A stretch of 64,000 nt of DNA, from the IMG/VR virus record IMGVR_UViG_3300042260_000337, one strand, 5' to 3'. The stretch's first letter is position 1. The number at the start of each line of letters is the position of its first letter. The position numbers and the translations under genes are program-made. The notes under the pieces are model-generated. The model had not been told where the DNA came from, made no database searches, and worked only from the letters and a program-made list of their open reading frames with translations. This DNA comes from a virus. Lineage: Duplodnaviria > Caudoviricetes. This document shows positions 28,781 to 30,164 of the stretch, piece after piece.

Positions 28781-28889
28781 AGTTTATCCTTTCTGATTGA
28801 GTAGGTTACTGACGATCTAAATGGGTATTGGCGTTAGCCGCAGGGTTTCAGGTTCCTACTCGCTACTACAAACCCTTTTTCGCTTTATT

Positions 28890-28966
28890 TGGTGGCCCTA
28901 GTGGGACTCGAACCCACGACCAATAGTTTTAGGGACTGCCGCTCTAACCAACTGAGCTACAGGGCC
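28890..28966 (-). tRNA. amber-suppressor tRNA (anticodon CUA)
   Basis: GGCCCUG/UAGGGCC acceptor, GCUC/GAGC D stem, GUGGG-UUCGAGU-CCCAC T arm, A73-CCA; anticodon loop CCCUAAA (atypical C33, one C-A mismatch in the stem). Confidence 0.8.
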
Positions 28967-28974
28967 AATATGAA

Positions 28975-29240
28975 TGAGTGTTTACCCTATCGTTGCTCGG
29001 TATTCATTATGGTAAGTAATGAAATCCCAAGCTATTGTCGGAAGCGTTTGACCTCCACGGTTCATTTGGATACCACCTCGCATTACTTCGCGGTGTTACT
29101 GCCACACTCAGAGGATACATTGATTTCAAGTCCTATACGACCACAATAGAGGCTCTTGCGAGTAGTCTACCGTCTAACCATATAGTGTTCTGCGCGTCTT
29201 TCCAATCCAACCAAGATAAACCCCGTTGGCGGTAGGAACT
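28975..29240 (-). ncRNA. unassigned ~260-nt structured RNA candidate
   Basis: no credible ORF; CUC-GCAA-GAG tetraloop, long-range CUAUUGU/ACAAUAG stem, GC-richer than its surroundings. Confidence 0.5.
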
Positions 29241-29274
29241 CAATGTATCGTCAAAATGTGATTTCATTTTGTCA

Positions 29275-30119
29275 AGGCTGAGATTATACCTTGAGGTGAG
29301 TGCCTTCGGTCATTACCCAATCCCTTGCGAGGATGGTTCTACCTTTATCCACAAGAGTCGTTTCCGATCATCTTGTATCACTCAATGCGGCCTTTGTTAG
29401 AGAGTGGCATTTCTCTCGTCGCATACTGCTATTCATCCTTCCATCTTCCGCCAGCCTTGCGGGCTGTTCAAGGTCGCTAAACCCTTACGTCTTCTGTCCG
29501 AATAATCACGTCCACCTTGCGAGTTTCAGTGAACCATATTCTCTTGCGAGTATGGTATTACGCATCTTTCACAGTATACCGAGGTAGTCTTTCGCTTTTG
29601 TTTCAATAATAGGAGTTGAACCTACAATCGTTCTCTTAGAAGGAGACTGCATTACCATTATGCAATATTGCGAACCTATTTCGATGTGCTACCTCAGTTG
29701 CACCATACCTTGTTAGATACAGTATACAACACACCGACTGTCTTTTGCCTTGCGGGCTACTCAACGTCTTTTCAAGTATCCGGGGCCTAACCCTTCCACT
29801 CTCAAGATGCTACTACGCCTTTCCTTGCAGGGTCAGACAGTGTAGCTACCTGTTAACCTTCAGTATTCGTTAGTTTGGCTGAAAACTGTTCGGACGCCAA
29901 TCCTCTTACCACTCACCGACTGGCTCTGTGGCTATCCTTTCAGACAGTTCTCCTAACTTACTACCTACCGCCTCTCTACAGACGGGACTTGCTTTCGGTT
30001 TAATCCGAGTCAAGTCTGGTTCAGGCTTGTATAGATGGACCATCACTGGCGCAAGTTTATAGGAAACCTTGCTTTGGGCGTATTACTACGCTTACCCTTA
30101 TGGACGCTATACCGCCCAA
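29275..30119 (-). ncRNA. GOLLD-like giant ornate ncRNA (~845 nt)
   Basis: own promoter TTGACT-17-TAGGAT (30127-30155); five or more C-GCAA-G tetraloop hairpins; 3' end ...CUCAAGGUAUAAUCUCAGCCU; sits in a phage tRNA cluster and carries an internal tRNA, as known for GOLLD. Confidence 0.72.
29601..29672 (-). tRNA. tRNA-Arg(UCU)-like domain embedded in the GOLLD-like RNA (probably degenerate)
   Basis: GCAU/AUGC D stem, loop CUUCUAA, GUAGG-UUCAACU-CCUAU T arm; top two acceptor pairs mismatched, no CCA. Confidence 0.6.
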
Positions 30120-30164
30120 TCTCTACATCCTAACTCAATTCCGAAGAAGAGTCAAGGACTTTTT

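Follow-up and report, generated by a model that had tools for sequence, protein, structure and literature searches.

We analysed a stretch of 64,000 nucleotides (the window) from a Caudoviricetes record (IMGVR_UViG_3300042260_000337), whose 102,689 bases at an estimated completeness of 27% (IMG/VR virus record) point to a jumbo phage. All relevant features at the locus lie on the minus strand. An open reading frame (30548-30165) comes first, ahead of a promoter-like site (30155-30127) called by the promoter scan and of a GOLLD RNA (29275-30140), which was identified by Rfam RF02032; its 5′ domain spans about 30140-29738 and the Rfam match covers 29737-29275 (193 bits, model positions 1-416). 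A tRNA with anticodon CUA (28966-28890; ARAGORN and Rfam) and a gene with an amber second codon (28780-28520) lie downstream. The stretch between GOLLD and this tRNA (29274-28967), here called X, begins with a short linker (29263-29274) after the conserved GOLLD 3′ end (..AAUCUCAGCCU), the Rfam alignment stopping at 29275. Two modules follow, a stalk-closed cassette (module A, 29100-29262, with a 116-nt interior at 29124-29239) and a three-way-junction RNA (module B, 28975-29118), and an 8-nt spacer (28967-28974) precedes the tRNA 5′ end as placed by ARAGORN and Rfam. Between 28400 and 30300 the promoter scan called the GOLLD promoter only, with none in X, and the terminator scan called zero terminators. 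Because X has no promoter or terminator of its own and no terminator was called across this interval, a single transcript from the GOLLD promoter onward is the simplest reading, and we infer that GOLLD, module A, module B, tRNA(CUA) and the amber gene share one untranslated precursor.

X is non-coding, as a preliminary description of this DNA had stated. Its longest open reading frame has 44 aa and loses its ATG in the relative L337 (L-numbers denote fetched viral and metagenome loci that were compared with the window), and a search for codon periodicity or other coding signal in X gave none. The GC enrichment noted earlier is also present (0.44-0.47 in X vs 0.35-0.39 in the flanking genes). 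The sense strand of X folds better than dinucleotide shuffles (z -2.29), whereas the antisense strand does not (z -0.6); the sense-strand values for the modules are -2.99 for module A and -1.77 for module B. Both the CUC-GCAA-GAG hairpin (29162-29153, within the module A interior), which is present in the minimum-free-energy fold, and the AUGAAU/AUUCAU-type hairpin (29023-29003), which corresponds to helix P3 of module B and is backed by compensatory changes, had been picked out correctly. The third proposed element, a 7-bp long-range CUAUUGU/ACAAUAG stem, fared differently: the complementarity exists, CUAUUGU finds a local partner in the fold of module A, and comparative support is nil because GACAAUAG (29039-29032) stays unchanged as an unpaired internal-loop segment throughout the eight module B sequences, so that the stem is one of several competing pairings in X. 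The TTGACA at 29270-29275 was rejected as a promoter; it reads TTGTCA in L337 and L343, and the promoter scan calls nothing in X.

Two syntenic metagenome contigs, L337 and L343, carry X at 96% identity and GOLLD at 73-92%. The window and these two contigs are 99.3% identical in module A from its GA/UC pairs inward (29251-29102), 97.9% in module B and 100% in tRNA(CUA). The GOLLD 3′ domain reaches 89-92%, the GOLLD 5′ domain 73-84%, the amber gene 85% and the gene after it 67%, and 29274-29252, which comprises the linker and the 5′ strand of the outer helix (helix I) in module A, is 65% identical. Four of the differences that L337 shows in 29274-29252 are U↔C exchanges opposite G in helix I, and pairing is kept in all four. 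The positions 28781-29251 (modules A and B, tRNA(CUA) and the leader of the amber gene) form a sharp block of 94-100% identity with flanks of 65-92%. Judged from these alignments, the block would reflect either very strong constraint on X or recent exchange or recombination.

The Rfam search that the preliminary description had proposed, run on X at E≤10, returned no family match inside X besides an alignment to YrlA (RF02553; 22.8 bits, E 0.015, gathering score 69), which extends from 29041 to 28913 and borrows the real tRNA. Full-length relatives of module B had no Rfam match either, and neither X nor a typical cassette of the kind described below was matched by blastn among 50,697 cultured-phage records. 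With respect to tRNAs, X gave no match to RF00005 at E≤10 and no ARAGORN call. A derivation from decayed tRNA genes was rejected after alignment of modules A and B to the 17 tRNAs of the window with 300 shuffles each, none of the local alignments being significant (best z 2.0 for module A with tRNA-Sup and 2.9 for module B with tRNA-Ser). Elsewhere, a sub-threshold YrlA match (43.4 bits, E 9e-7, cut-off 69) lies inside the phage tRNA array of L342 (6286-6402, plus strand) and resembles a permuted tRNA, with T-arm and CCA first, then acceptor and D-arm.

Homologues of X were sought with nhmmer in loci fetched via the neighbouring amber gene and via GOLLD motifs. Only the 3′ half of X was matched, and in the matching phages the homologue sits 5′ of GOLLD, not 3′. 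Because the 3′ half matched alone and on the other side of GOLLD, we split X into modules A and B; what had been described as one large RNA of ~260 nt, the second of the locus, is thus two modules, each with its own homologues and contexts. The segment GAGUGU (29109-29104) is common to both, and the 7-bp closure of module B and helix I of module A are rival pairings of it.

Relatives of module B were collected by pattern scans of viral and metagenome contigs and then with a covariance model (R1), yielding 14 matches that represent eight distinct sequences; the copy in the window scores 117.6 bits (E 4e-28). It shows the core features of the family: a P1 arm with AAGUAA (29088-29083) and GAA, forming an internal loop that by eye is of E-loop or bulged-G type, and the invariant single-stranded segments GACAAUA and ACGAUA flanking a covarying P2/P3 hairpin. 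Across the eight distinct sequences 94.2% of the cells in paired columns are standard pairs, compared with 35-47% when the partners are slid by one to three columns, and 28 of the 51 pairs change on both sides (slid controls, 1-5); these figures come from a model-fitted alignment, which works in their favour, and an earlier MAFFT alignment already gave 21 double-changed pairs. Module B has no codon periodicity. An antisense reading frame through it (28961-29125, plus strand), stop-free over 55-60 aa in the window, L133, L333 and L342, was rejected for this reason (variable columns 37/59, 33/59 and 34/60), and also because it shifts between relatives and is interrupted in L337 and in copies of the L013 type. 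Pairing of module B with the anticodon arm of tRNA(CUA), the pairing exploited by the YrlA model, was rejected as well: the tRNA(CUA) of L133 has no complementary CUAUUG, and its duplex energy is no better than that of shuffles, RNAduplex on full lengths being a poor measure in this case.

The genomic contexts of module B are diverse. In the L275 group, L216, L013, L336 and L133, an UP-element promoter and a boxA-like CGCUCUUUGAUAAUUU are followed by a stalk of ~21 bp with module B and then by the GOLLD 5′ end; L333 has the same leader of promoter, boxA-like element and module B, followed by tRNA-Asn, and in L342 module B likewise precedes tRNA-Asn. The window, L337 and L343 share the order GOLLD, module A, module B, tRNA(CUA), and in these three the closing stalk of ~21 bp (type 2; ACUGUGUUUAC.. 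/ ..GUAAACACAGU) is missing, its place being taken by a 7-bp helix of UGAGUGU (29110-29104) with ACACUCA (28981-28975). Among ~80 loci carrying tRNA(CUA) or the amber gene, L013 was the sole match of R1. The type-2 stalk is reusable: in L364 (just 5′ of a GOLLD) and in L361, R1 detects only the stalk, which there encloses other interiors. The operon leader of the window itself contains a hairpin (31166-31093, minus strand) between a boxA-like element and tRNA-Met, whose arms (CUGUUUUCACAUACA.. / ..GCUGAAAACAGA) resemble the type-2 stalk by eye, R1 not reaching E≤1 there; in other phages stalks of this type surround module B, and in L361 and L275 they surround different interiors. Two loci have T-arm-like sequences (GGUUCGAUUCC, GGUUCGAAUCC) without an ARAGORN tRNA call, just upstream of GOLLD in L017 (480-564, plus strand) and just upstream of module B in L342 (2180-2211, plus strand).

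Module A is built on a basal helix of ~20 bp that encloses the 116-nt interior. From the outside inward it consists of helix I (29261-29254 with 29109-29102), a U·U mismatch (29253/29110), two GA/UC pairs (29252-29251 with 29112-29111), a C·C mismatch (29250/29113) and helix II (29249-29240 with 29123-29114), in which GAUAC pairs with GUAUC. A matching signature, UUU-GA-Y-GAUAC ... GUAUC-Y-UC-U-RA, stands right after GOLLD in relatives, and we defined type-1 cassettes by helix I of ~8 bp, U·U, GA/UC, a pyrimidine·pyrimidine mismatch and GAUAC/GUAUC extended to 9-10 bp. The window carries this architecture (UGACGAUAC...GUAUCCUCUGA) with C·C replacing the second U·U, and its dot-bracket pattern matches that of other members.

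Type-1 cassettes were collected by regular expressions on all fetched loci and by one strict pattern scan. The resulting 35 distinct cassettes have like stalks and unrelated interiors, and all 35 fold into helix I of ~8 bp, U·U, GA/UC, the pyrimidine mismatch, helix II of 9-10 bp and a variable interior. According to the per-position counts, the first mismatch is U·U in 33 of 33 instances, and helix I is paired in 85% of cells (slid controls 19-48%, shuffled partners at most 71%) with several pair types per position, up to four to six. The strict stalk pattern found 28 stretches in viral contigs, 23 of them with both helices, compared with 14 matches in 185,579 prokaryote genomes, of which two, both on tiny contigs, have both helices and the other 12 are chance matches. 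Type-1 cassettes are thus phage-specific and essentially absent from those prokaryote genomes. Most of the 115+92 viral matches that the loose patterns of the analysis gave were due to chance. The type-1 cassettes exactly span gaps between stable RNAs on the same strand: 10 lie directly 3′ of a GOLLD end and 14 directly 3′ of tRNA-Lys(UUU), where helix I overlaps two nucleotides (CA) of the CCA, and the 5′ end of the next tRNA is often at -3 to +6 nt from the cassette.

The interiors vary from tRNA-like structures with T-arms (L346, L354 and L366) to a short hairpin (L013, L275 and L364). The 116-nt interior of the window, with three hairpins, is known from the window lineage only, nhmmer with the 5′ half of X having found no homologue in more than 330 loci; its predicted internal fold comes from thermodynamics, since the interior has no diverged homologue. 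In L366 (359-877, plus strand) cassettes of type 1 follow tRNA-Lys(UUU) in tandem, the 3′ arm of one being able to pair with the 5′ arm of the next, so that repeat-hairpin and cargo-enclosing folds compete; one interior there (782-862) scores 37.6 bits on the tRNA model without an ARAGORN call. In L275 (6400-6906, minus strand), and also in L276, the space from GOLLD to the next tRNA holds three consecutive stalk-closed modules: one type-1 cassette, one hairpin with the arms GUUGAACAG.../...CUGUUCAAC, and one module whose closing strands are CUGUUUACACAUAC / GUAUGUGUAAACAG. A box C/D k-turn reading of UGAUGA...CUGA in the stalk was rejected, as CUAA stands in place of CUGA in most members and the stalk forms a regular helix interrupted by two pyrimidine mismatches.

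These observations bear on the 3′ end of GOLLD. Ten GOLLD loci lack a terminator; in these, a long-range helix of 14-25 pairs starts 1-16 nt past the conserved end of GOLLD and encloses a module of 60-250 nt, whereas three GOLLD loci (L095, L104 and L096) have an intrinsic terminator there instead. In the window the helix starts about 14-15 nt past the GOLLD end, and it is likewise close in the nine other loci; with 20-22 pairs and at most two mismatches, the stalks of the window and L337 fit about two turns of double-stranded RNA formed from flanking sequences. GOLLDs outside tRNA arrays terminate exactly where X begins, but array-embedded GOLLDs have, in place of a terminator, a long leader-trailer helix that closes a structured module. 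X is not part of GOLLD as modelled by RF02032, whose alignment is complete (1-416) and ends at 29275.

X is a real conserved, structured and non-coding region that combines two modular RNA families, both typical of tRNA operons in uncultured phages. The collection of homologues and the covariation analysis, also proposed in the preliminary description, bear this out, for the pairs of module B and of the module A stalk covary across relatives; with the strong conservation and the negative searches of Rfam and cultured phages, the description of an undescribed structured phage non-coding RNA holds. On balance we favour, with moderate confidence, the reading that X is a pair of modular structured RNAs in one precursor, that the stalks are processing and stability signals and that the modules are excised. 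The model draws on the geometry, on the flush junctions and on the analogy with rrn leader-trailer stalks and MALAT1-mascRNA. The trailer of the upstream stable RNA, be it GOLLD or the CCA end of a tRNA, and the leader of the next RNA would be zipped into a helix of ~20 bp, which in the module A family has a fixed sequence and mismatch signature and an interchangeable interior. Such stalks, of a length typical for RNase III substrates, could act as double-strand processing and stability signals, set the GOLLD 3′ end where a terminator is absent and separate neighbouring RNAs. RNase P acting at the tRNA would free the 3′ side of module B, and the interiors would emerge as small, stable RNAs. 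In other phages module B is the interior of the second stalk type, placed after a promoter and boxA-like element and immediately 5′ of GOLLD or the first tRNA. By analogy with these systems, cleavage would fall within the stalks and the products would be stable.

The main role of X may nevertheless lie outside processing, since a processing signal needs no conserved ornate interior. The preliminary description had suggested a partner or cargo of the GOLLD cage, and X, or at least the lineage-specific interior of module A, might be an appendage attached to GOLLD or docking through its GNRA (GCAA) loop. The two RNAs do abut (0 nt between the GOLLD 3′ end and X, and no terminator), the interior's ACUCGCAAGAG is the same 11-mer as in a GOLLD hairpin at about 29552-29542, module B adjoins GOLLD in six of the eight distinct sequences (~3 independent contexts), and X is better conserved than GOLLD. 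Both module types, however, occur without GOLLD: in L333 and L342 module B stands before tRNA-Asn and GOLLD is not in the vicinity, cassettes like module A come mostly after tRNA-Lys, and a 92%-complete phage of 342 kb has a type-1 cassette and no GOLLD. The side on which module B lies also differs, being 5′ of GOLLD in some phages but 3′ of it in the window; stand-alone GOLLDs are ended by terminators exactly at the start of X, and the cryo-EM papers describe GOLLD as consisting only of a 5′ region, a linker that sometimes includes a tRNA, and a 3′ region. An obligate partnership is not supported, the appendage reading seems quite unlikely, and modules A and B look more like cut-out cassettes than like a dedicated partner of GOLLD. 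There is a small chance that the core of module B is a new functional RNA class, binding a ligand or protein or cleaving itself, that acts on the stable RNA it always precedes, or that the lineage-specific interior of module A is a docking domain on the 3′ ends of GOLLD subunits which loads or gates the 14-mer cage. We regard as unlikely that module B is a cis-acting transcription element, either a put- or EAR-like processive antiterminator or an rrn-type boxA/boxC leader for a long untranslated operon. Its position 15-53 nt past the boxA-like element and behind an UP-element promoter in six of the eight distinct sequences would suit such an element, as would its highly conserved core nucleotides; the window, L337/L343 and L342, on the other hand, have no upstream promoter or boxA, no downstream terminators were seen for module B to override, and the stalk around it holds other interiors elsewhere.

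Three further readings concern the cassettes or X as a whole. The cassettes could be decoys in the manner of Y RNAs or tRNA mimics, with a stalk that docks a protein of host or phage (such as a Ro60/Rsr-like one or an anticodon nuclease) and an interior that mimics tRNA. The T-arm-bearing interiors of several members, among them the one in L366, are in keeping with mimicry, the invariant stalk sequence with its fixed mismatches suggests recognition by a protein, and weak YrlA matches occur in these arrays, including the 43.4-bit one in L342. Against this, the interior in the window is not tRNA-like, the YrlA match of the window falls far below the cut-off and covers module B and the real tRNA, and the TROVE domain (PF05731) of Ro proteins was not found in five phage records (G000 and four related ones), of which most are incomplete and one is 92% complete, with control genomes positive; the decoy reading has a slim chance. 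Identical arms around unrelated interiors at different loci, the tandem arrays as in L366 and the sharp step in identity at the boundary of module A, with its 99% block, would all be explained if module A were a MITE-like mobile DNA element with the arms as terminal inverted repeats. This is very unlikely: helix I changes in sequence without losing its pairing, to a large extent by means of G·U pairs, which function in the sense RNA only, the mismatches are conserved as mismatches, and insertion is always strand-specific and flush with RNA ends. Finally, X sits in a tRNA array, and a short stretch of it (UGGUUAGA..GG.AG) is similar to the part of the neighbouring tRNA around the D-loop, as might be expected of a neutral spacer or decayed tRNA genes. 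At 96-99% X is, however, far better conserved than the neighbouring genes (67-85%), module B and the module A stalk covary, and the tRNA similarity is not significant over the 34 tests; on these comparisons we consider the neutral reading largely refuted and extremely improbable.

The locus bears on GOLLD, which is among the largest bacterial or phage RNAs with a solved structure and for which we know of no function; the formation of its ends and the RNAs transcribed together with it deserve attention. The helix that follows GOLLD is part of a cassette system that is specific to phages and whose interiors are interchangeable, and a separate, covariation-supported three-way-junction RNA recurs beside GOLLD or the first tRNA of the operon. 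Both modules are absent from Rfam and are reasonable candidates for new RNA families, a value tempered by the fact that non-tRNA structured RNAs in phage tRNA clusters are a general phenomenon known since T4.

The stable RNAs species 1 and 2 of T4 (rnaC and rnaD) and those of T5 are encoded in tRNA gene clusters; they are small, structured non-tRNA RNAs that are co-transcribed with phage tRNAs and freed by processing, and T4 species 1 RNA is an RNase III substrate in vitro. To our knowledge their function has not been established, and we know of no description for T4 of a shared stalk with interchangeable interiors and a flush CCA junction. X is like them as a small structured non-tRNA RNA of a phage tRNA cluster, but neither X nor the typical cassette has a sequence match among the 50,697 cultured-phage records. 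With GOLLD (RF02032) X shares the strand, the inferred transcript and similar C-GCAA-G hairpins, while lying outside the model and the described architecture, at the place where other GOLLDs have a terminator. YrlA and other bacterial Y RNAs (RF02553) likewise combine a long basal stem with a variable, often tRNA-like module; the score of X (22.8 bits vs a gathering score of 69), the unrelated stalk sequence and the phage records without a Ro/TROVE gene set X apart from them. In MALAT1-mascRNA and NEAT1-menRNA (PMC8457004), the 3′ end is formed by a downstream tRNA-like structure with leader-trailer pairing. The resemblance lies in a long non-coding RNA without terminator that is followed by a structured module which could recruit tRNA-processing or double-strand nucleases, and extends to the T-arm-bearing interiors of some GOLLD-adjacent cassettes (L090 and L346); this is a likeness by analogy to a eukaryotic system, the interior in the window not being tRNA-like. 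The RNase III leader-trailer stalks of bacterial rrn operons, together with boxA, are similarly helices of ~20 bp formed from sequences flanking a stable RNA, and module B relatives stand directly after a boxA-like element behind UP-element promoters. The phage cassettes differ in that they enclose 50-130 nt rather than rRNAs and in that the stalk sequence itself is conserved, with fixed pyrimidine mismatches.
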